The notes under the pieces: generated by a model
Database searches by the model: none
Told to the model about the DNA's origin: nothing
The model's input: the letters and a program-made list of their open reading frames with translations, nothing else
Position numbers and translations under genes: made by a program
Assembly (NCBI RefSeq): GCF_000017305.1
Contig: NC_009664.2
Coordinates: 1,830,001-1,862,000 of the forward strand
Direction: 5' to 3'
Length of the DNA stretch: 32,000 bases
Source: Kineococcus radiotolerans SRS30216 = ATCC BAA-149
GTDB lineage: Bacteria > Actinomycetota > Actinomycetes > Actinomycetales > Kineococcaceae
Shown: piece after piece, positions 3,931 through 24,792 of the stretch
Numbering within the stretch: the stretch's first letter is position 1
Layout: every line of letters begins with the position of its first letter

Positions 3931-4542
3931 ATGCGCCTGCCCCGGTGGACCGCCGCCGCTCTCGTCCTCGTCGCGACCGTCGCGCAGCTGCTGCTCGCGA
4001 CGTTCGCGCGCGACCTCCCGCAGTTCGCGGGGAAGGCGTTCGGGGCCCGGCTGGTGTCCTACCCGGTGCTGATGCTGCTCGTCCCGCTGCTGTGGCGGGT
4101 CCGGCACCGCCGCGGGGACCGCGCGCCGCGGCCGGTGCCCCGCCCGGTGCCGTGGGCGGGGTTCACCCTGGTGATGCTGCCGTTCCTCGTCGACGTCAGC
4201 GGCAACACCCTGAACCTCTACGACACCGTCGTCTGGTGGGACGACGCCCTGCACTTCCTGAACTGGTGCCTGCTCACCCTGGGCCTGGGCCTCGTCCTGG
4301 ACGTCGCCGCGGTGCGCCCGCGGTGGGCGCGGGCGGTCGCCGTCGTCGGCGGGGGCGCGCTGCTGGCGCTGCTGTGGGAGGTCGGGGAGTGGTGGACGTT
4401 CATCCGCCACGGCACCGAGATCGCCACCGCCTACGAGGACACCCTGGGCGACATGGCGCTGGGCACGACCGGGTCGGCGGTCGCGCTGGTCCTGCTCGTC
4501 CTCAGGGCCGGTCGGGGTCGTCCGGTCCGCGCCCGTCCTTGA
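3931..4542 (+). CDS. Hypothetical integral membrane protein
   Basis: ATG 3931 follows aaGGGG. The product (MRLPRWTAAALVLVATVAQLL...) has several hydrophobic helices and Trp-rich loops (WWDDALHFLNW, WEVGEWWTF). I do not recognise a family. The upstream part of ORF 3643-4542 is antisense to the permease. Confidence 0.6.
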   Translation: MRLPRWTAAALVLVATVAQLLLATFARDLPQFAGKAFGARLVSYPVLMLLVPLLWRVRHRRGDRAPRPVPRPVPWAGFTLVMLPFLVDVSGNTLNLYDTVVWWDDALHFLNWCLLTLGLGLVLDVAAVRPRWARAVAVVGGGALLALLWEVGEWWTFIRHGTEIATAYEDTLGDMALGTTGSAVALVLLVLRAGRGRPVRARP

Positions 4543-4660
4543 ACTCGTCGCGCAGGCGCCGCGGGTCGGCCGGGGGCAGGTTCGAGCCCGAGCCCCGCAG
4601 CCGCCGGTAGGCGAGGAAGGCGACCACGGCCAGGACGAGGACGACCAGGAGGTACTTCAC
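4502..4660 (-). CDS. Small single-pass membrane protein (52 aa), absent from the ORF track
   Basis: GTG 4660 to TGA 4502 encodes VKYLLVVLVLAVVAFLAYRRLRGSGSNLPPADPRRLRDEFKDGRGPDDPDRP. All but one of its third codon positions are G/C, and it has an N-terminal TM helix followed by a charged tail. It overlaps the 3' end of 3931-4542 convergently by 41 nt. Confidence 0.3.
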   Translation of the reverse strand: MKYLLVVLVLAVVAFLAYRRLRGSGSNLPPADPRRLRDEFKDGRGPDDPDRP

Positions 4661-4689
4661 GCCGCGAGCCTACGCGGCGCCCGCGCGGG

Positions 4690-5037
4690 TCAGTGCAGCT
4701 TCGTCGTCCAGTTCCACGGCACCCGCCCGCGCGGGCCGGGGGCCGGCTGGTCGTCGGGGTGGTTCAGCGGCGGGGCCAGGTCGGGACCGGAGGCGTAGGT
4801 CTCGTCGCTGCCGAAGTCGTAGAACCACTCCTCCCCCGGTTCGTAGCTGCGCACGACGGTGTGCCCGGACGCCGCGACGTGGGCGCGGGCGTGCTGGGCG
4901 GGCGAGGAGTCGCAGCAGCCGACGTGCCCGCACGCCGCGCAGCGGCGCAGGTGGAACCACCAGCCCCGCGGTTCGGCCGCCTCGCAGTCCGCGCAGCCGG
5001 GTCCGCTCGGTGCGGCGGTGGGGTCGATCAGGTCCAC
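4690..5037 (-). CDS. UBP-type (ZnF-UBP/BUZ-like) zinc-finger domain protein
   Basis: The Cys/His ligand pattern is CADCEAAEPRGWWFHLRRCAACGHVGCCDSSPAQHARAHVAASGH. I set the start at GTG 5037 because AGGAGGGA lies 5 nt upstream, inside the kinase 3' end. The ATG at 5070 is an alternative start. Confidence 0.8.
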   Translation of the reverse strand: MDLIDPTAAPSGPGCADCEAAEPRGWWFHLRRCAACGHVGCCDSSPAQHARAHVAASGHTVVRSYEPGEEWFYDFGSDETYASGPDLAPPLNHPDDQPAPGPRGRVPWNWTTKLH

Positions 5038-6413
5038 GGTCGTCCCTCCTGGGGGTTCGTCGGCAACCACACCCGGAACACGGTGTCCCCGGGTCCGCTC
5101 GTCACGCCGAGGCGCCCGTGGTGGCGGTGCACCACGACCCGCCAGGCGATGTCCAGGCCCAGCCCGGTCCCCTCCCCGACGTCCTTGGTGGTGACGAACG
5201 GCTCGAAGACGCGCGGCAGCACGTCCGCGGGGACACCCGGCCCGTCGTCGGCGACCTCGACGACGACCCCCGCCCCGTCGGGGTCGTCACGCACCCGCAC
5301 CGTCACGGTGCCCGCGCCCCCCGGCCCGCCCGCCACGGCGTCGAGGGCGTTGTCGAGCAGGTTCGTCCAGACCTGGGTGAGCTCCCCGGCGTGCCCGAGC
5401 ACCTGCGGGACCTCGGCGTAGTCCGTCACGACCCGGGCGCGGCCCACGGCCCGCCCGGCCCCCGCCCCGAGCATCGCGATCGCGGCGTCGAGCAGCTCGC
5501 GCACGTCGACCCAGCGGTTGTCGGTGCGGTCCAGCTGCGCGTAGCGGCCCGCGGAGGCCAGCAGGTCGCTGATGCGCGCCGACGCCGCCGACGCCTCCGC
5601 GAGGAGCGAGCGGACCGCGAGGCTGCGCGCGTACCGCTCGACGGTCGCCCGGTCCCCCAGCGCGGTCAGGTCGCCGGCGCCCACGCCGTGCTCGACGAGC
5701 ACCGGGGCGAGGTCGTCGGCGTCGTCCACCCCCAGCTCGTCGAGGACGTCGAGCAGGACGTCCTCGGCCTCGGCGCGGCGCAGCGGGTCCAGGGGGGCCG
5801 CGGCGCGGGGGGCGGGCAGGGCCGGCGCCCCGGGGACGGCGCGGTCCAGCGCGGCCAGCCCGCCCTGCAGCTGCTCCAGGGTGCGGGCCAGCGCGGCGGC
5901 CGGGTTGCCGAGCTCGTGGGTGAGCCCGGCGGTCAGCGACCCCAGCGCCAGCAGGCGCTCGCGGGCGGCGGTGAGCTCCTGGGCCTCGGCGAGACCGACG
6001 CGCAGGCCCTCCAGCAGGTGCACGGCCATGGGGAACCACTCCCGCACGACCCGGCCGAACTCCGCGGCCGGCAGGGCGAAGAGCCGGGCGGGTTCCAGGA
6101 CCCGGGCGGAGGAGCTGTACCCCTCCGGCGCGGCGTCGCCGAGGTAGGCCTCCCAGGCCCCGCAGTACACCCCGCGCTGGCGGGTGCGGCTGATCTCGAG
6201 GTCGTCGCCGCCGCTGCGGTGGGACAGCGCGAGCGTCCCGGAGAGCAGGACGTAGAAGCAGGTGGCCTCCTCGCCCTCCCGGTACAGCCAGCCGGGGGCG
6301 GCCTCGACGACGTCGCCCGCGGTGGAGAGCAGGTGCAACTGCTCCTCGGAGAGCCCCTCGAAGAGGAACAGCGTCCGCAGCTCCTCGACGGGCAGCTTCG
6401 CCGCGGTGCTCAC
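5028..6413 (-). CDS. Histidine kinase with an N-terminal cyclic-nucleotide-binding-like domain
   Basis: The N-terminus reads LFLFEGLSEEQLHLLS...CFYVLLSGTL...ARVLEPARLFALP (cNMP-binding fold). It is followed by the H-box LTAGLTHELGNPAAA and an HATPase (NLLDNALDAV, VADDGPGVP, GEGTGLGLDIA). GTG 6413 overlaps the upstream stop (GTGA). Confidence 0.85.
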   Translation of the reverse strand: MSTAAKLPVEELRTLFLFEGLSEEQLHLLSTAGDVVEAAPGWLYREGEEATCFYVLLSGTLALSHRSGGDDLEISRTRQRGVYCGAWEAYLGDAAPEGYSSSARVLEPARLFALPAAEFGRVVREWFPMAVHLLEGLRVGLAEAQELTAARERLLALGSLTAGLTHELGNPAAALARTLEQLQGGLAALDRAVPGAPALPAPRAAAPLDPLRRAEAEDVLLDVLDELGVDDADDLAPVLVEHGVGAGDLTALGDRATVERYARSLAVRSLLAEASAASARISDLLASAGRYAQLDRTDNRWVDVRELLDAAIAMLGAGAGRAVGRARVVTDYAEVPQVLGHAGELTQVWTNLLDNALDAVAGGPGGAGTVTVRVRDDPDGAGVVVEVADDGPGVPADVLPRVFEPFVTTKDVGEGTGLGLDIAWRVVVHRHHGRLGVTSGPGDTVFRVWLPTNPQEGRPWT

Positions 6414-8146
6414 GACTGCGCCAGGTAGCGGTGCACGAGCATGACGGCCATCGCGCCCTCGCCGACGGCGGAGGCGACGCGCTTCACCGAGTCCGCGCGC
6501 GCGTCCCCGGCGACGAACACCCCGGGGACGGAGGTCTCCAGGTGGTAGGGGGCCCGTTCCAGCGCCCAGCCGGGCGGGCGGCCGTCCTCCAGGTGCAGGT
6601 CGGGGCCGGCGACGACGAAGCCGTGCGCGTCGCGCTGCAGCGTCCCCTCCAGCCAGGCGGTGCGGGGCGCGGCCCCGATGAACACGAACACGTGGGTCGC
6701 GGGGACCTCGTGCTCCTGCCCGGACTGCCTGTCGCGCAGCACGATCGAGCGCAGGTGGCCCTCGCCGTCCTCGTCGCCGCGGGCGGAGACGACCTCGGTG
6801 CAGGTGCGCACCGCGACGTTGCCGAGGGCGCGAATCTGCTCGACGAGGTAGGCCGACATCGACGCCTCGATGCTCGGTCCCCGCACGAGCAGGGTGACGC
6901 TGCGGGCGGAACGGGCCAGGTTCACCGCGGACTGCCCGGCGGAGTTCGCCGCGCCCACGACGAAGACGTCCTCGTCGGCACAGGCCCCGACCTCGCTGAG
7001 CGCGGCGCCGTAGTAGATCCCGCGGCCGGTGAACTCCTCCAGCCCCGGGCCCTCCAGCGTGCGGTAGGAGACGCCGGTGGCGAGCAGGACGGTGTGCGCG
7101 GCGACGCTGCTGCCGTCGGCGAAGCGGACGACGTGCGCGCCGCCGGCGCTCTCCAGCCCGGTGACGCTGCGCGCGGCGAGGGTCTCGGCGCCGAACTTCG
7201 CGACCTGCCGGCGCGCCCGGTCGGCCAGCTGCGCCCCGGACAGCCCGTCGGGGAAGCCGAGGTAGTTCTCGATCCGGGAGCTCTGCCCGGCCTGCCCGCC
7301 GGTGGCGTGCTCCTCGACGAGGACCGTCCGCAGCCCCTCCGAGGCGCCGTAGACGGCGGCCCCCAGCCCGGCGGGGCCCCCGCCGACGATCGCGAGGTCG
7401 TAGAACTCCCGCTGCGGGCGGGTGGAGAGGCCCACGTGGTCGGCCAGCGCGGTGTCGTCGGGGTCGACGAGCACCTGCGGTCCCCCCGGGCCGGGACCGG
7501 GGGCCAGCACGACGGGCAGCCGCGTCGTGGCGGCGTCGTGGCCGGAGGCGCTGAGCAACCGGTCCGCCTCGGGCTGCCCGGCCAGCAGCCACCGGTAGGG
7601 GACCTCGTTGCGGGCGAGGAAGTCGCGCACCGCGAAGGAGCGCGCGGACCAGCGGTCGCCGATGACGGCGACCTCGTCGGCGGGGCGGGCGGGGATCGCG
7701 CGCCAGGACTCCAGCAGGGCGTCCAGCACCGGGTAGAGCTTCTCCTCCGGCGGGTTCCACGGCTTGAGGAGGTAGTGGTCGAGGTCGACGTCGTTGATGG
7801 CGCGGATGGCCGCGGAGGTGTCGGCGTAGGCGGTCAGCAGGACCCGGCGCGCGGTGGGGAAGAGGTCCATCGCCTGCTCGAGCAGTTCGACGCCGTCCAT
7901 CTGCGGCATCCGGTAGTCGGCGAGGACGGCCGCGACGGGTTCCCCGCGCAGCGCCAGCTCGCGCAGCGCGGTGAGGGCGTCCGCGCCGGACTCCGCGCGC
8001 AGGACGCGGTACTCCTGGCCGTAACGGCGGCGCAGGTCGCGGGCCACCGCGCGCGACACCGCGGGGTCGTCGTCCACCGTCAGCAGCACCGGCCGACCGC
8101 TCGCGCGCCGCTCGTCCACCACGGGCTCCACCTCAGGGTCCACCAC
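6410..8146 (-). CDS. Fused response-regulator receiver / thioredoxin-reductase-like FAD-dependent oxidoreductase
   Basis: The REC domain reads VLLTVDDDPAV...VLADYRMPQMDG...LLKPW. The flavoprotein part reads YDLAIVGGGPAGLGAAVYGASEG...VFVVGAANSAGQSA...GVFVAGDA. I set the start at GTG 8146, with GGGAG 9 nt upstream. The longest ORF reaches 8293, but that extension is Arg/Pro-rich with poor codon bias. Confidence 0.85.
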   Translation of the reverse strand: MVDPEVEPVVDERRASGRPVLLTVDDDPAVSRAVARDLRRRYGQEYRVLRAESGADALTALRELALRGEPVAAVLADYRMPQMDGVELLEQAMDLFPTARRVLLTAYADTSAAIRAINDVDLDHYLLKPWNPPEEKLYPVLDALLESWRAIPARPADEVAVIGDRWSARSFAVRDFLARNEVPYRWLLAGQPEADRLLSASGHDAATTRLPVVLAPGPGPGGPQVLVDPDDTALADHVGLSTRPQREFYDLAIVGGGPAGLGAAVYGASEGLRTVLVEEHATGGQAGQSSRIENYLGFPDGLSGAQLADRARRQVAKFGAETLAARSVTGLESAGGAHVVRFADGSSVAAHTVLLATGVSYRTLEGPGLEEFTGRGIYYGAALSEVGACADEDVFVVGAANSAGQSAVNLARSARSVTLLVRGPSIEASMSAYLVEQIRALGNVAVRTCTEVVSARGDEDGEGHLRSIVLRDRQSGQEHEVPATHVFVFIGAAPRTAWLEGTLQRDAHGFVVAGPDLHLEDGRPPGWALERAPYHLETSVPGVFVAGDARADSVKRVASAVGEGAMAVMLVHRYLAQS

Positions 8147-8720
8147 AGCCGGAAGCTCCCACCCGTCCCCGCCCGTGGTCAAGCCTCGGGGCCACCGCGG
8201 CCGGCGATGCAGTCGTCGTGCGGATGCCCGGGCCGGTGCCCGGGGCGGGGATCGGGCCGTCTCGGCCACTGCGGTGGCGGTGACGTCCGCCACGTCCTAC
8301 CTGCGGCGCTCGCCGGCTCGCCGAACGCGACGTGGACGAGGACGACGGTGGGGCGGGTGGGGGTTCCGGTCACGCTGCACCTCCGGTTCGGGGCCGTGGT
8401 CGGGTTCGAGGTCAGGCGGCCTCGGGGCGGCCGCGCACGACGGCCGGGACCCCGTCCACCGAGGCCGGCGGGTGGCGCCGGTGGGCGGTCCCCGCTCTCG
8501 TCCCCGGCGTCGTGCACGACGAGGACGTTAGGCGGGCGGGCGGGCACGAGCCAGGCCCTGAGAGGGTCAGGTCCACCGCCGCGAGCGGGGTCCGGGATCG
8601 GGGAGGATCACCCCGACCGCGATCGGGAGGAGTCCCCTCGTGCCCGGGAACCCGGAGGACACCTCCCTCTGAACCCGCCCAGGCGTTCGTCGACGCCACC
8701 GAGAACGGTCAGCCGGGTAC

Positions 8721-8865
8721 CGGTGAACGTGGTCTCAACCGTGTTCACACCACCGTGCGTTCCCGCGCTGAGCAGGGCGACGCCTGCTCGAAGAACCACC
8801 CCGACCACTCCTCGACGAGGAGAGGCAGCACTCAGCGCGTCGGTTCGAGCAGGGCTCGAGCCGAC
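8721..8865 (+). promoter_or_regulatory. Structured 5' leader candidate upstream of the hydrolase gene (four stem-loops)
   Basis: The four stems are: 8723-8732/8739-8748 (10 bp, 2 G-U pairs); 8770-8776/8783-8789 (7 bp); the palindrome ctcctcgacgaggag at 8808-8822; and 8839-8849/8855-8865 (11 bp, 1 G-U pair). The G-U pairs are valid only in a plus-strand RNA. SD GGAGG at 8874-8878 and ATG 8885 follow. Confidence 0.3.
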
Positions 8866-8884
8866 TTCAACCTGGAGGTCGACC

Positions 8885-9721
8885 ATGCCGTTCGTGACCA
8901 CGAGCGATGACGTAGAGATCTACTTCAAGGACTGGGGCAACGCTGATGCCCAGCCCATCTTCTTCCACCACGGATGGCCCCTGTCCTCGGACGACTGGGA
9001 CGCGCAGATGCTGTTCTTCCACGCCCACGGCTACCGGGTCATCGCGAGCGATCGTCGCGGTCACGGCAGATCAGCCCAGGTGAGCACCGGCCACGACATG
9101 GACCACTACGCCAGCGACGTCGACGCGGTGGTGGAGCACCTCGACCTCCGCGACGTCATCCACATCGGCCACTCCACCGGCGGTGGTCAGGTCGCACGCT
9201 ACGTCGCGAAGTACGGCGAGCCGCAGGGCCGCGTGGCGAAGGCCGTCCTGGTGGCAGCCGTTCCCCCGCTGATGCTGCAGACCGAGGCCAACCCGCAAGG
9301 AACGCCCCTATCGGTGTTCGACGGGTTCCGCAGCAGCCTCGCGGCCAACCGTGCCGAGTTCTACGACGCCGTGGCCTCGGGCCCGTTCTACGGCTTCAAC
9401 CGACCTGACGTGGAGGCCTCGCAGCCGGTCATCGACAACTGGCGCCGCCAGGGCATGACGGGTAGCGCGTTGGCGCACTACGAGGGCATCAAGGCGTTCT
9501 CGGAGACCGACCAGACGGACGACCTCAAGGCGATCTCCGTCCCGGTCCTCGTGATCCAGGGTGACGACGATCAGGTGGTGCCCTACCAGGACGCAGCTCT
9601 GAAGCAGCACGAGCTCCTCCGCGACTCCACCCTCAAGATCTACGAGGGCTACCCGCACGGCATGCTCACCACCCACGCCGAGGTGATCAACCCCGACCTC
9701 CTGGCGTTCATCCAGCAGTAG
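8885..9721 (+). CDS. Alpha/beta hydrolase of the cofactor-free (non-haem) chloroperoxidase/perhydrolase family
   Basis: The 278-aa product begins MPFVTTSDDVEIYFKDWG...PIFFHHGWPLSSDDWD and has the nucleophile elbow GHSTGGG and the C-terminus YEGYPHGMLTTHAEVINPDLLAFI. GGAGG lies 6 nt before ATG 8885. Only the 3' third of ORF 6431-9721 is real. Confidence 0.9.
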   Translation: MPFVTTSDDVEIYFKDWGNADAQPIFFHHGWPLSSDDWDAQMLFFHAHGYRVIASDRRGHGRSAQVSTGHDMDHYASDVDAVVEHLDLRDVIHIGHSTGGGQVARYVAKYGEPQGRVAKAVLVAAVPPLMLQTEANPQGTPLSVFDGFRSSLAANRAEFYDAVASGPFYGFNRPDVEASQPVIDNWRRQGMTGSALAHYEGIKAFSETDQTDDLKAISVPVLVIQGDDDQVVPYQDAALKQHELLRDSTLKIYEGYPHGMLTTHAEVINPDLLAFIQQ

Positions 9722-9737
9722 GACCTGGCGCTGTCGC

Positions 9738-9780
9738 GGCGGACGGCGCACCCAGCTGCACCTCGGGTGCGCCGTCCGCC
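9738..9780. terminator. Perfect 16-bp stem hairpin between convergent genes (bidirectional terminator candidate)
   Basis: ggcggacggcgcaccc (9738-9753) is the exact reverse complement of gggtgcgccgtccgcc (9765-9780), with an 11-nt loop. It lies 17 nt after the hydrolase stop and 12 nt after the methyltransferase stop. Confidence 0.6.
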
Positions 9781-9791
9781 CGGGCGCGACG

Positions 9792-10523
9792 TCAGCCGCG
9801 GGTGAACCGGGTGCAGTGCGTCAGGTACGGCACCGCGACCGGGTCCCCCGGGCCGAACACGCCGTCGAGGACCTCGCCCACCCGGGCCAGCAGCTCCACG
9901 CGCTCGGCCTCGGGCCGCACGATGACGTAGCTGCGGGAGGCGACGAGGTCGAGGACCCCGGCGCGGTCGAGGACGTGCTCGTGCCGGGTGGTGAACCGCT
10001 CCGGGGGGCCGAAGGGCGCGCCGAGGCGCGTGTCGTCGGCGCCCATCTCCTGCTCGGTGCCGCGCTGGGCGATCGACCACACCCGCCGCACCCAGTCGAC
10101 GGTGTCGTCGCGCAGGTTCCACACCAGCCCCAGGGTGCCGCCGGGGCGCAGCACCCGCGCGACCTCGGGCACCGCGCGGGCCGGGTCCACCCAGTGCCAG
10201 GCCTGGGCGACGACGACGGCGTCCACCGACGCGTCCGGCAGCCCCGTGGCCTCCGCGGAGCCCTCGTGCGCCTCGACGCCGGGCAGCGCCGTCCGCAGCT
10301 GCGCCAGCATCCTCGTGGAGGGTTCGACGGCGACGACCTCGTGGCCAGCGGCGAGCAGGGCCGCGGTGGCCTTGCCCGTCCCGGCGCCGAGGTCGAGGAC
10401 GCGCCGGGCGGAGCCGGCGAGGAAGGCGACCGCGTCGGCGGGGTAACCCGGACGGGCGCGGGCGTAGGCGCCGGCGGCTGCTCCGAACGAGCGGGCGTGC
10501 GGGGTGAGGTCCACGGGAGCCAT
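9792..10523 (-). CDS. Class I SAM-dependent methyltransferase
   Basis: The 243-aa product has motif I VLDLGAGTGKAT and the downstream motifs VVAVEPS and DAVVVAQAWHW, typical of Methyltransf_11-type enzymes. Confidence 0.85.
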   Translation of the reverse strand: MAPVDLTPHARSFGAAAGAYARARPGYPADAVAFLAGSARRVLDLGAGTGKATAALLAAGHEVVAVEPSTRMLAQLRTALPGVEAHEGSAEATGLPDASVDAVVVAQAWHWVDPARAVPEVARVLRPGGTLGLVWNLRDDTVDWVRRVWSIAQRGTEQEMGADDTRLGAPFGPPERFTTRHEHVLDRAGVLDLVASRSYVIVRPEAERVELLARVGEVLDGVFGPGDPVAVPYLTHCTRFTRG

Positions 10524-10546
10524 CCTGCGCCCCGCAGGCTGGGGGG

Positions 10547-10969
10547 GTGTCGAAACCCCCGCCCCGCCACCAGTGGCGCTCGTGGGCGGCGATCACCTTC
10601 GTCCTGTCCCTCGTGACGGCGGTCGGCGCCGGCCTCTTGCTGGTCCCCAAGATGCACACCGCCCACCTGCTCGCGCAGCGGGGGGTGGTCACCGACGCCG
10701 AGGTCGTCGGCTTCCGCGCCGCGGCGGAGAGTCACGACGACACCTGGACGCTGGAGTTCACCACCGCGACGGGCGAGCGGGTCCGGGCCCGGACGAAGGC
10801 GGTCACCCGGGACGAGGCGGTGCGCCACCCGGTCGGGACCCGGTTGCCGGTGCGCTACGACCCCCGGCACCCGACGCGGGTGTGGTCGGTGGCGACACCG
10901 CTGGAGCCGTCGTTCTGGTGGGGGTCTACGGCGGGCTCGTCGGCGCCGCCACCGTCCTCGCCGCCCTGA
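10547..10969 (+). CDS. DUF3592-like membrane protein, apparently frameshifted near 10880
   Basis: An N-terminal TM helix (WAAITFVLSLVTAVGAGLLLV) is followed by a beta-rich domain ending VRYDPRHPTRV. After about 10880 this frame gives a low-complexity tail (STAGSSAPPPSSPP) rather than the C-terminal TM helix usual for the family. Confidence 0.6.
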   Translation: MSKPPPRHQWRSWAAITFVLSLVTAVGAGLLLVPKMHTAHLLAQRGVVTDAEVVGFRAAAESHDDTWTLEFTTATGERVRARTKAVTRDEAVRHPVGTRLPVRYDPRHPTRVWSVATPLEPSFWWGSTAGSSAPPPSSPP

Positions 10970-11100
10970 TGGGGCTGGGGCTGAAACCGTGGCGGGCCCC
11001 CTCTCCCCCCGACCCGCCCGTCGTGACGGTGCCGGTGCCGGTCGCGCCACCCCGGGCGGGGCGGGGACGCGTCGCGCGGCGGGGGAGGATGGGCCCGTGA
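10882..11100 (+). pseudogene. -1 frame continuation of the DUF3592 gene (C-terminal TM segment), or a separate small membrane ORF
   Basis: The frame of ORF 10504-11100 reads from GTG 10882: VVGGDTAGAVVLVGVYGGLVGAATVLAALMGLGLKPWR... This is a clear TM helix with high GC3. Its TGA (11098-11100) overlaps the ABC-F GTG 11097 (GTGA coupling). Confidence 0.4.
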
Positions 11101-12731
11101 GCGCAACCCTCGTCGCCAAGGACCTCAGCGCCGCCCACGGGACGCGGGCGCTGTTCTCCGGTCTGGACCTCGTGATCGCCCCCGGTGACGTGGTGGGGCT
11201 GGTCGGGGCCAACGGCGCGGGCAAGTCCACGCTGCTGCGCCTGCTCGCGGGCGGGGAGACCCCCGAGACGGGCACCGTCTCGCTCTCGCCGCCGACCGCG
11301 ACGGTCGGGTACCTGCCCCAGGAGCCCGAGCGCCGTCCCGGGGAGACCGTCGCGGGCTTCCTGGGCCGGCGCACCGGGGTCGCGCAGGCGCAGCGGGAGA
11401 TGGACGAGGCCGCGGAGGGCCTGGCCACGGGGGCGCCGGGCGCCGACGACCGCTACGCCGACGCCCTGGACCGCTGGCTGGCGCTGGGCGGGGCCGACCT
11501 GGACGAGCGCCGCGAGGAGGTCCTCGCCGACCTGGGGCTGAGCGTCTCCGGGGACGCGCTGATGACGTCGCTGTCGGGCGGGCAGGCCGCCCGCGCGGGG
11601 CTGGCCGCGCTGCTGGTGTCGCGCTACGACGTGTTCCTGCTCGACGAGCCCACCAACGACCTCGACCTGGACGGCCTGGCCCGGCTGGAGCGGTTCGTGA
11701 CCGAGCTGCGCTCCCCCGCCGTCGTCGTCAGCCACGACCGGGAGTTCCTGGCCCGCACCGTGGACCGCGTCGTGGAGCTGGACCTGGCCCAGCAGCTCGT
11801 GCGGGTCGTCGGCGGCGGGTACGAGGCGTTCCTCGCCGAGCGGGAGGTGCAGCGCCGCCACGCCCGGGAGGCCTACGACGAGTTCGCCGACACGAAGGCC
11901 GGGCTGGAGGCGCGCGCCCGGATGCAGCGCGGCTGGATGGCCCAGGGCGTGCGCAACGCCGTCCGCAAGGGCGACCCGGACAAGAACATCCGCGCCAAGA
12001 TGCGCGAGGGCAGCGAGAAGCAGGCCGCGAAGGCGAAGCAGACCGAGCGGATGATCGAGCGGCTCGACGTCGTCGAGGAGCCCCGCAAGGAGTGGCAGCT
12101 GCAGATGGAGATCGCGGCCGCCCCCCGCTCGGGGACGGTCGTGGCGACGGCGCGCGAGGCCGTCGTCCGCCGCGGCGGGTTCACGCTCGGACCGGTGACG
12201 CTGCAGCTGGACTTCGGCGACCGGGTCGCCGTCACCGGCCCCAACGGGGCGGGGAAGTCGACGCTGCTGCACCTGCTGCTGGGCCGGGTCGCCCCCGACT
12301 CCGGCTCCACCGCGCTGGGGTCCGGTGTCCAGGTCGGGGAGGTCGACCAGGCCCGCGGGCTGTTCGTCGGCGAGCAGACCCTGGCCCGCGCCTTCTCCGA
12401 CGCCGTCCCGGAGTGGCCCGACGCCGAGGTGCGGACCCTGCTGGCGAAGTTCGGGCTCGGCGCCCACCACGTCGCGCGGACGGCCGCCAGCCTCTCGCCG
12501 GGGGAACGCACCCGCGCCGCGCTGGCGCTGCTGCAGGCGCGCGGGGTGAACCTGCTGGTCCTCGACGAGCCCACCAACCACCTCGACCTGCCGGCCATCG
12601 AGCAGCTGGAGCAGGCCCTGGCGAGCTACGGCGGCACGCTGCTGCTGGTCAGCCACGACCGGCGGCTGCTGGAGGCGGTGCACGTGACGCGCCGCTTCGC
12701 CGTGGAGGACGGGCGCGTCCGCGAGCTCTGA
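11097..12731 (+). CDS. ABC-F family ATPase (two ABC domains, no membrane domain)
   Basis: There are two Walker A sites (GANGAGKST, GPNGAGKST), two signature motifs (LSGGQAARA, LSPGERTRA) and a basic interdomain linker (RKGDPDKNIRAKMREGSEKQAAKAKQTERMIERL). I set the start at GTG 11097 (VSATLVAKDLS). The ATG at 10989 would add a Gly/Arg/Ala-rich extension unlikely to be real. Confidence 0.9.
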   Translation: MSATLVAKDLSAAHGTRALFSGLDLVIAPGDVVGLVGANGAGKSTLLRLLAGGETPETGTVSLSPPTATVGYLPQEPERRPGETVAGFLGRRTGVAQAQREMDEAAEGLATGAPGADDRYADALDRWLALGGADLDERREEVLADLGLSVSGDALMTSLSGGQAARAGLAALLVSRYDVFLLDEPTNDLDLDGLARLERFVTELRSPAVVVSHDREFLARTVDRVVELDLAQQLVRVVGGGYEAFLAEREVQRRHAREAYDEFADTKAGLEARARMQRGWMAQGVRNAVRKGDPDKNIRAKMREGSEKQAAKAKQTERMIERLDVVEEPRKEWQLQMEIAAAPRSGTVVATAREAVVRRGGFTLGPVTLQLDFGDRVAVTGPNGAGKSTLLHLLLGRVAPDSGSTALGSGVQVGEVDQARGLFVGEQTLARAFSDAVPEWPDAEVRTLLAKFGLGAHHVARTAASLSPGERTRAALALLQARGVNLLVLDEPTNHLDLPAIEQLEQALASYGGTLLLVSHDRRLLEAVHVTRRFAVEDGRVREL

Positions 12732-24626: not shown

Positions 24627-24792
24627 CTCGAAGCTCGCGGAGGCCGGGTTCGGCGACCGGGCTGGTTGCGCCTGCAACTTGCCCTACGCTGGACCCACCA
24701 TCCAGAGCGGCCGAGAGACCTGGCTCGTCGACGCCGCAGCAACCGCCCCCTCGGGGGTGTGGTGCTCACGCCAGGACCGATGGAGGACGACC

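Follow-up and report, generated by a model that had tools for sequence, protein, structure and literature searches.

Nearly all of the response regulators that have been studied govern transcription, motility or second messengers. In CheB, PleD/WspR, RpfG and RssB, as in the locus described here, a receiver (REC) domain is fused to an enzyme and a kinase gene lies adjacent. A combination of REC with a thioredoxin reductase ('TrxB') was catalogued by Galperin et al. 2018 (PMC5847659), and a 2022 review tabulates the TrxB-type regulator SCO7298 of Streptomyces coelicolor with the kinase SCO7297, giving neither a name nor a function (PMC9739842). SCO7298, treated as 'trxB3', is induced by sulfane sulfur (PMC9952706) and by acid shock (PMC2631018). 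For none of the catalogued TrxB-type regulators has an activity, a ligand or a phenotype been described, and neither the missing CxxC motif nor the link to a zinc finger reported below is mentioned in the accessible papers. Here we analyzed a system of this type in a 32,000-nucleotide stretch of Kineococcus radiotolerans SRS30216 (contig NC_009664.2, positions 1,830,001 to 1,862,000; hereafter the window), where three successive minus-strand genes encode a REC-flavoprotein regulator, a soluble histidine kinase and a UBP-type zinc finger (zf-UBP) protein; the S. coelicolor pair is of the same regulator/kinase type according to its published listing. The best explanation of the whole, to which we assign a probability of roughly 0.55, is a self-contained two-component module whose output would be enzymatic rather than transcriptional. 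Consistent with the original prediction made from this DNA, which knew of no functional characterization, our literature search (subscription-only papers outside its coverage) found no functional, biochemical or genetic study of the module, and with the same coverage nothing on the function of bacterial zf-UBP proteins.

The trio runs in the order regulator (8146 to 6410), kinase (6413 to 5028) and zinc finger (5037 to 4690) in the list of open reading frames (ORFs) of the window, which has ~75% G+C. The 578-aa regulator combines REC, a cysteine-less glutaredoxin-like domain and a thioredoxin reductase (TrxR)-like flavoprotein module (ORF, Pfam and NCBIfam evidence). The 461-aa kinase combines a cyclic-nucleotide-binding (CNB)-like sensor, a dimerization and histidine phosphotransfer (DHp) region and HATPase_c, and the third protein has 115 aa. 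All of the domains expected beforehand (Response_reg, Pyr_redox_2, cNMP_binding, HATPase_c and zf-UBP) were recovered by Pfam above the gathering cut-offs, and the output of the regulator is indeed a TrxR-fold flavoprotein and not a DNA-binding domain. We also confirmed the two gene overlaps in the sequence. Regulator and kinase share the four nucleotides GTGA (6413 to 6410), made up of the regulator stop TGA (6412 to 6410) and the kinase start GTG (6413 to 6411). The kinase and zinc-finger genes overlap by 10 nt (5037 to 5028), with the kinase stop TGA at 5030 to 5028, an in-frame GTG start for the zinc finger at 5037 to 5035 and a Shine-Dalgarno-like motif, AGGAGGGA, at 5050 to 5043, so that the junction as a whole occupies 5028 to 5050. 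Translation from the in-frame GTG at 8146 yields a regulator of 578 aa, equal in length to a public protein (P0001) that is 99% identical; the ORF upstream of 8146 stays open as far as a GTG at 8293. P0001 and a second public protein, P0015, are both labelled Kineococcus radiotolerans, yet they are 99% and 80% identical, respectively, to the regulator of the window, a marked difference which probably means either that the window stems from a strain other than the type strain or that one of the records bears the wrong label.

Conservation of the unit was examined by a pattern scan over one genome per species, which gave at least 597 confirmed loci. The best 80, 63-84% identical, were analyzed. 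They span Kineococcus, Streptomyces, Pseudonocardia, Nocardia, Rhodococcus, Tsukamurella, Williamsia, Frankia, Kribbella, Micromonospora, Cellulomonas, Catenulispora and Mycobacterium. With at least 597 species-level genomes and more than 2,500 clade clusters at E ≤ 1e-30, the family is large; Streptomyces, Nocardia, Rhodococcus, Frankia and Mycobacterium are among the genera that have it. The description of the architecture as unusual does not hold, given this number of genomes and the presence of the 'TrxB' type in response-regulator censuses. The kinase gene lies directly downstream of the regulator in 78 of the 79 loci that retain sequence past the regulator (L081, whose contig stops 107 nt beyond the regulator gene, was left out). 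The sole split pair is in a metagenome-assembled Pseudonocardia genome (L010), with a 3.9-kb insert between the two genes; this insert (8653-12531 of that locus) carries genes for a CstA-like (587 aa) and an ArsA-like (306 aa) protein. In 57 of 77 informative loci (~74%), the gene after the kinase encodes the zinc finger, and in L073 and one Geodermatophilus contig the zinc-finger gene is instead divergent and upstream of the operon. With start codons picked heuristically, a 4-nt stop/start overlap was the commonest junction, both between regulator and kinase (56/83 loci) and between kinase and zinc finger (43/61). A more distant REC-TrxR-like protein (52% identity) likewise precedes a CNB-kinase. 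Recurrence of the order in 78/79 and 57/77 informative genomes with differing flanks is far beyond chance.

All-versus-all clustering of six-frame ORFs from 82 loci found no further neighbor that recurs in over 20 of them, and those found reflect Streptomyces synteny. Nothing but the trio being conserved across these loci, there is no target gene in cis. Loci that lack the zinc finger show no consistent gene after the kinase that could substitute for it. In the window itself, the flanking genes (a xanthine/uracil permease, a membrane protein, an alpha/beta hydrolase and a methyltransferase) are unrelated to the trio. Because regulator-kinase adjacency is near-invariant and the zinc finger is present at ~74%, the conserved unit is regulator plus kinase, often joined by the zinc finger as third member. 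The idea that all three genes act as one unit is thus upheld by the conserved order and the coupled junctions, and has to be relaxed for the zinc finger, which is not obligatory.

The regulator begins with a REC domain (aa 22-133; 7748-8083; Response_reg, E 2.3e-14) that is closest to RpfG/HD-GYP-type receivers (2RJN; NosR-family match). The predicted phospho-acceptor Asp77 (7916-7918) is accompanied by D25/D26, T105 and K128, and all of these residues are invariant in 10 orthologues and at least 95% conserved in 83. An AlphaFold2 (AF2) model of the regulator built from a 150-sequence alignment reached a mean predicted local distance difference test score (pLDDT) of 94 and a predicted template-modelling score (pTM) of 0.90, and replaced an earlier, poor model from 10 sequences (pLDDT 65.5). 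In this model the linker between REC and reductase (aa 159-237; 7436-7672) has a beta-alpha-beta-alpha-beta-beta-alpha topology. Consistent with this topology, a linker profile of 27 diverse clade members matches mycoredoxin-1 of M. tuberculosis (2LQO, E 1e-8) and, more weakly, other glutaredoxins and NrdH. The W-C-G-Y-C active site of mycoredoxin-1 aligns to W166-S-A-R-S170 of the regulator, where CGYC has become S167-A-R-S170. The CxxC or CxxS that glutaredoxins require is missing, and cysteine occupies those positions in just 8 of 150 clade representatives. We regard the linker as a dead, cysteine-less glutaredoxin-like domain.

A second dithiol is missing from the TrxR-like module (aa 249-578; 6413-7402), which Pfam recognizes as Pyr_redox_2 (aa 249-564, E 8e-29). 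It retains the FAD motif GGGPAG and the GD motif, with GAANSAGQ at the NAD(P)H site, and the best solved relatives of the regulator are AhpF and TrxR (E 1e-41 to 1e-28). The redox-active C345-P-H-C348 of AhpF aligns to G380-A-A-L383 (6998-7009), and no cysteine was found at either CxxC position in any of 150 representatives (50%-identity clusters of the wider clade). The orthologues instead share the pattern YGSALTEAxxC, in which E385 and C389, just beyond GAAL, are invariant in 10 and at least 95% conserved in 83 sequences. Against TIGR01292, the equivalog model for TrxR, the regulator scores 201.7 bits, short of the cut-off of 343.45. With the CxxC gone and the family cut-off not reached, the regulator is, on the residues and scores at hand, not a thioredoxin reductase. 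Both dithiol centers of the AhpF-type layout of Trx fold and TrxR are erased from its sequence (GAAL and SARS), which would make reduction of thioredoxin-type disulfides by the classical route impossible. By Foldseek, the reductase part of the AF2 model resembles TrxR in the flavin-reducing (FR) conformation (TM-score 0.92-0.94, root-mean-square deviation 2.1-2.4 Å) rather than the flavin-oxidizing (FO) conformation (TM-score ~0.64), as expected for an enzyme that has no disulfide to offer to its flavin. The earlier description holds as regards the TrxR fold and needs correction as regards the redox enzyme: the protein has no CxxC and a cysteine-less glutaredoxin-like linker, it is no thioredoxin reductase, and its redox chemistry is a prediction.

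To place this flavoprotein in its wider clade, we searched the whole library with the glutaredoxin-like and reductase parts and obtained 2,526 clusters at E ≤ 1e-30. Among 87 full-length representatives, Pfam detected cNMP_binding in 27, Response_reg in 17 and an EF-hand in one as N-terminal domains, and a family hidden Markov model (HMM) built for this analysis assigned ~58 as REC-like and ~20 as CNB-like. Fusion to a signal-input domain is therefore habitual in the reductase clade. Outside the actinobacteria, too, the zinc finger is found next to this clade. Homologues of 2IDA, a bacterial 'hypothetical protein' that is the closest solved relative of our zinc finger (E 1.8e-17), are 85-93% identical across proteobacterial lineages, and in Mesorhizobium sp. 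AR07 the zinc-finger gene starts exactly at the end of a gene for a 568-aa CNB-TrxR-like fusion, in which the CxxC is absent too and the EAxxC motif is kept. When metagenomes were scanned with the proteobacterial zinc finger as seed, 64 loci had flanks long enough to be informative; a CNB-fused flavoprotein adjoins the zinc finger in 47 of them, in 35 cases no more than 60 nt upstream of it on the same strand, and none of these carries a REC or the kinase. That the zinc finger follows the flavoprotein in two phyla and in two regulatory layouts argues that the flavoprotein, and not the kinase, is its conserved partner. As the comparison further suggests, actinobacteria have a 'split' form of the system, in which a phosphorelay was inserted between sensor and enzyme. 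We considered true cAMP control of the CNB-fused form and dropped it, as the fused CNB domains lack the canonical phosphate-binding cassette (0/87 by regular expression, confirmed by eye for the 17 aligned fusions, with the canonical Arg absent too). Two metagenomic sequences depart from the usual layouts. P0123 (714 aa) is a triple fusion of REC, TrxR-like module and a C-terminal CNB domain that, unlike all others, carries a canonical cassette, GEMAVLQQAPRTA. A second contig (L090, 1487-5724) holds the CNB-TrxR-like fusion twice, with one copy, the second, apparently broken up into two ORFs; the copies flank an AraC-type regulator and adjoin an isochorismatase gene.

This sister architecture, with a CNB-like sensor fused directly upstream and no kinase, places the flavoprotein downstream of a sensor, and the actinobacterial kinase has a sensor domain of its own. 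Both observations make it doubtful that the flavoprotein is itself the sensor, reading NAD(P)H/NAD(P)+ or redox state through its flavin, with the phosphorylated receiver (perhaps together with the zinc finger) signaling by protein contacts or the regulator acting as a phosphate sink for the kinase. Such a reading would nonetheless account for the loss of the dithiols with the cofactor sites kept, which fits sensing as well as catalysis. It would also suit the lack of both a conserved target gene and a DNA-binding domain, and the zinc finger is plausible as a protein-interaction module.

The zf-UBP domain spans aa 15-79 of the third protein (4801-4995; E 1.2e-11, 45.1 bits versus 22.7) and is followed by a proline-rich conserved tail. 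Ten residues of it are invariant in actinobacterial and proteobacterial homologues (C15, C18, C33, C36, C41, C42, H29, H49, H53 and H59), and H38 is at least 90% conserved in homologues from both phyla. The domain also resembles USP16 (E 2e-3). Relative to the pocket residues of USP5 and HDAC6, the W75/W77-type aromatic positions appear to be kept, and the position of the carboxylate-binding Arg reads His. The Arg of the CGR[RY] motif, which holds the ubiquitin C-terminal carboxylate in those proteins, lies in a segment that reads CGHV here. It is rather improbable that the regulator-kinase pair functions alone and that the zinc-finger gene, though often carried along as a passenger, has an unrelated housekeeping function. 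The gene is absent at ~25% of the loci and ~65-70%-identical orthologues stand alone elsewhere, as a passenger might. Against this, its 4-nt overlaps with the kinase gene, an adjacency that survives rearrangement to the divergent orientation and the independent pairing with the CNB-fused flavoprotein in another phylum (47/64 informative loci) all tie it to the module. In the stand-alone Micromonospora and Mumia loci (L085, 5001-7404; L087, 5001-6810), a PhzF-family gene lies within ~1.2 kb downstream of the zinc finger, and in Mumia a gene for a DinB-like protein lies downstream as well. This PhzF neighborhood may be a second conserved context of the zinc finger.

The kinase is cytoplasmic, as had been proposed: no transmembrane segment was found (maximum Kyte-Doolittle 19-residue mean 1.04). 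Its N-terminus is a CNB/CRP-FNR-type sensor (aa 8-140; 5994-6392; cNMP_binding, E 1.8e-8), with the PF00027 match covering aa 43-124 at 34.7 bits versus a gathering score of 27.5. In an hhalign profile alignment to E. coli CRP, the phosphate-binding cassette (aa 81-105; 6099-6173) is degenerate, with Ala86 on the ribose-binding Glu72 and Tyr99 on the phosphate-binding Arg82. The manual alignment of GYSSSARV (aa 98-105; 6099-6122) to ERSAWVRA of CAP, from which replacement of the Arg had been proposed, is upheld for Tyr99, and the ribose-binding Glu proves to be lost too. The residues of the sensor that are at least 95% conserved in 80 orthologues form a different set (Tyr99, Gly81, Tyr83, Gly85, Glu73 and Arg76), and none of the 80 has a canonical cyclic-nucleotide (cNMP) cassette, in line with the earlier suggestion that the ligand may not be cAMP or cGMP. 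The best solved relative of the sensor is DNR (2Z69, E 4e-8), a haem/NO sensor of the CRP/FNR family, and alignments to true cNMP binders end short of the cassette. The sensor is predicted to be unable to act as a canonical cAMP or cGMP binder. We find it very improbable that the kinase is regulated by these nucleotides with residues elsewhere, for instance invariant Glu73 and Arg76, making up for the degenerate cassette: the Pfam match above gathering and these two charged residues in the barrel would favor such regulation, and the replacement of both canonical contacts in the window, the absence of the cassette from all orthologues, the truncated alignments and the relationship to DNR speak against it. 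Sensing by an Fe-S cluster or haem was also rejected, there being no FNR-like Cys cluster and the likeness to DNR alone not being evidence for haem.

The sensor ends in an invariant helix, WFPMAVHLLEG, ~30 residues ahead of the H-box, an arrangement that suggests direct helix-to-helix coupling to DHp. The predicted phosphorylated His166 (5916-5918) lies within the H-box THELGNP. Pfam HisKA was not detected in the kinase, and the ~100 aa between the H-box and the ATPase domain matched no family. The HATPase_c domain (aa 343-452; 5058-5387; E 1.4e-24) has CckA, ZraS, FixL and NtrB as matches in the Protein Data Bank, and the H-box and N/G1/F/G2 boxes are conserved in 80 orthologues. Their adjacency (78/79) and predicted translational coupling support regulator and kinase as a cognate pair, for which phosphotransfer from the kinase His to the receiver Asp is the prediction.

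A genuine thioredoxin reductase under two-component control in a thiol or oxidative-stress response, as databases and papers that name it thioredoxin reductase would have it (PMC9952706, PMC2631018) and as the rise of SCO7298 mRNA after sulfane sulfur and acid shock might suggest, is hardly credible in view of the CxxC missing from the window and all 150 clade representatives, the sub-cut-off TIGR01292 score and the occurrence of a SigR/SigH-type motif (GGAAT-N17-19-GTT) upstream of the regulator in 1 of 83 loci versus 0.44 in shuffles. Membership in a thiol-stress regulon was rejected, the motif not being enriched. Annotations routinely and wrongly call this regulator family thioredoxin reductase, and papers that count it among the thioredoxin-system genes (as 'trxB3', for example) probably misassign it.

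On the observed anatomy, conservation and losses of catalytic cysteines, we propose a chemistry that is conditional throughout. A ligand or cofactor other than cAMP or cGMP would bind the CRP/FNR-type sensor of the kinase, and the C-helix WFPMAVHLLEG would relay the signal to the adjacent DHp helix and so set autophosphorylation of His166. The phosphoryl group would pass from His166 to Asp77 of the receiver, for which the intact motifs and the strict adjacency argue, and phosphorylation of the receiver would alter how active the attached flavoprotein is or how it assembles. Most likely, the flavoprotein would hand electrons from its reduced flavin directly to an acceptor, in the manner of TrxR-type ferredoxin reductases; its cofactor may be NADH, as VRG stands in place of the HRR that holds the 2'-phosphate of NADPH. 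The zf-UBP protein, whose association with the flavoprotein is observed, would work with it as acceptor, as substrate or as a partner of the dead glutaredoxin-like domain. In evolutionary terms, the flavoprotein elsewhere carries a fused N-terminal CNB domain, and the actinobacteria would have moved this sensor onto the kinase, with a receiver taking over its former position. If true, a phosphorelay that switches a flavoenzyme extends two-component signaling to the direct control of electron flow.

Several points weigh against such an enzymatic module. The NAD(P)H motif departs slightly from the consensus (the window has GAANSA where orthologues have GGANSA) and, with V-R-G for HRR, one of three 2'-phosphate arginines is kept, leaving nucleotide use uncertain. 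Many of the N-terminal REC-like domains of the clade appear to lack the acceptor Asp, in an alignment that mixes REC and CNB and is weak. The zinc finger does not adjoin ~25% of the regulator-kinase pairs, and in Micromonospora, Mumia and Caldimonas it stands by itself, in contexts unrelated to the module, so its function is not exclusive to the module. Co-transcription is deduced from the overlaps, and phosphotransfer, flavin binding, substrate and ligand, like the redox chemistry of the regulator, are for every member predictions from sequence.

A bolder version of the enzymatic module, which we put forward as tentative and would not count as probable, is that zf-UBP and the sensor-gated, thiol-less TrxR-like flavoprotein form an unrecognized two-protein redox system across phyla. 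The metal finger would be the direct electron acceptor or substrate (for example, with an iron site like that of rubredoxin, or as a zinc-thiolate that is redox-labile), with the flow switched by an N-terminal CNB-like, REC or EF-hand domain. If true, this would be the first case, in actinobacteria, of a His-Asp phosphorelay controlling whether a flavoenzyme passes electrons to a metalloprotein, and it would give bacterial ZnF-UBP a function unrelated to ubiquitin.

Elsewhere around the operon, no sigma-70-like promoter or intrinsic terminator consensus was found in 4300-9000, and no Rfam family in or near the operon. The gap of ~750 nt (8147-8899) between the regulator start and the divergent alpha/beta-hydrolase gene is unusually long; it contains no Rfam match, promoter or terminator consensus or SigR/SigH motif, and its repeats are unremarkable. 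An ORF of 52 aa (4502-4660, minus strand), with a hydrophobic helix at its N-terminus, begins 29 nt past the zinc-finger stop. A 76%-identical copy lies 1.6 kb from the zinc finger in another Kineococcus locus (L006) and other genera are without it; the ORF was rejected as a fourth member of the conserved module. A SAM riboswitch (RF00162) at 24695-24786 on the plus strand (61.2 bits versus gathering 44.4) is unrelated to the operon.

Overall, the architecture itself was already known. What appears to be new is the absence of the CxxC, the dead state of the glutaredoxin domain, the non-cNMP nature of the sensor and the pairing of flavoprotein and zinc finger across phyla. How the module stands among described systems can be set out part by part. 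Like low-Mr TrxR (TrxB; TIGR01292), the regulator has the two-domain FAD/NAD(P)H fold with GxGxxG and GD motifs, at 25-32% identity and with the high structural similarity to the FR state given above; it differs in lacking CxxC, in VRG for HRR, in its sub-cut-off score and in the extra N-terminal REC and glutaredoxin-like domains. AhpF/NTRC-type fusions are its best match by sequence and by Foldseek (1HYU, E 5.9e-41; 4O5Q, E 1.9e-34), and in them, as in the regulator, a Trx-fold domain is N-terminal to the reductase. AhpF, however, uses two CxxC centers where the regulator has neither, and no peroxiredoxin partner gene accompanies the latter. A TrxR fold that works without CxxC is found in TrxR-type ferredoxin-NADP+ reductases (B. 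subtilis YumC) and in the YpdA/Bdr bacillithiol-disulfide reductase. In the ferredoxin-NADP+ reductases, the flavin reduces a small metalloprotein directly. These enzymes are remoter in sequence than TrxR and AhpF (the regulator matches 5XHU at E 4.8e-19 and TIGR04018 at 55.8 bits, both weakly) and have no regulatory N-terminal domains, and the partner here is zf-UBP rather than ferredoxin. The kinase sensor shares with P. aeruginosa DNR, and with CRP/FNR effector domains generally, the beta-barrel and C-helix fold, and the cAMP contacts are absent from DNR too. It differs from DNR in being joined to DHp rather than to a helix-turn-helix and in its conserved set (E73, R76, Y83 and Y99). The zinc finger matches eukaryotic ZnF-UBP domains (USP16, USP5 and HDAC6) in its zf-UBP profile and in a Cys/His ligand pattern that resembles the three-zinc type, and differs from them as a stand-alone protein of ~100-115 aa with no ubiquitin-like gene nearby. 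The 2IDA structure has long been deposited with no function attached, and the link to a flavoprotein across phyla is the first concrete, testable lead on what a bacterial ZnF-UBP protein does.

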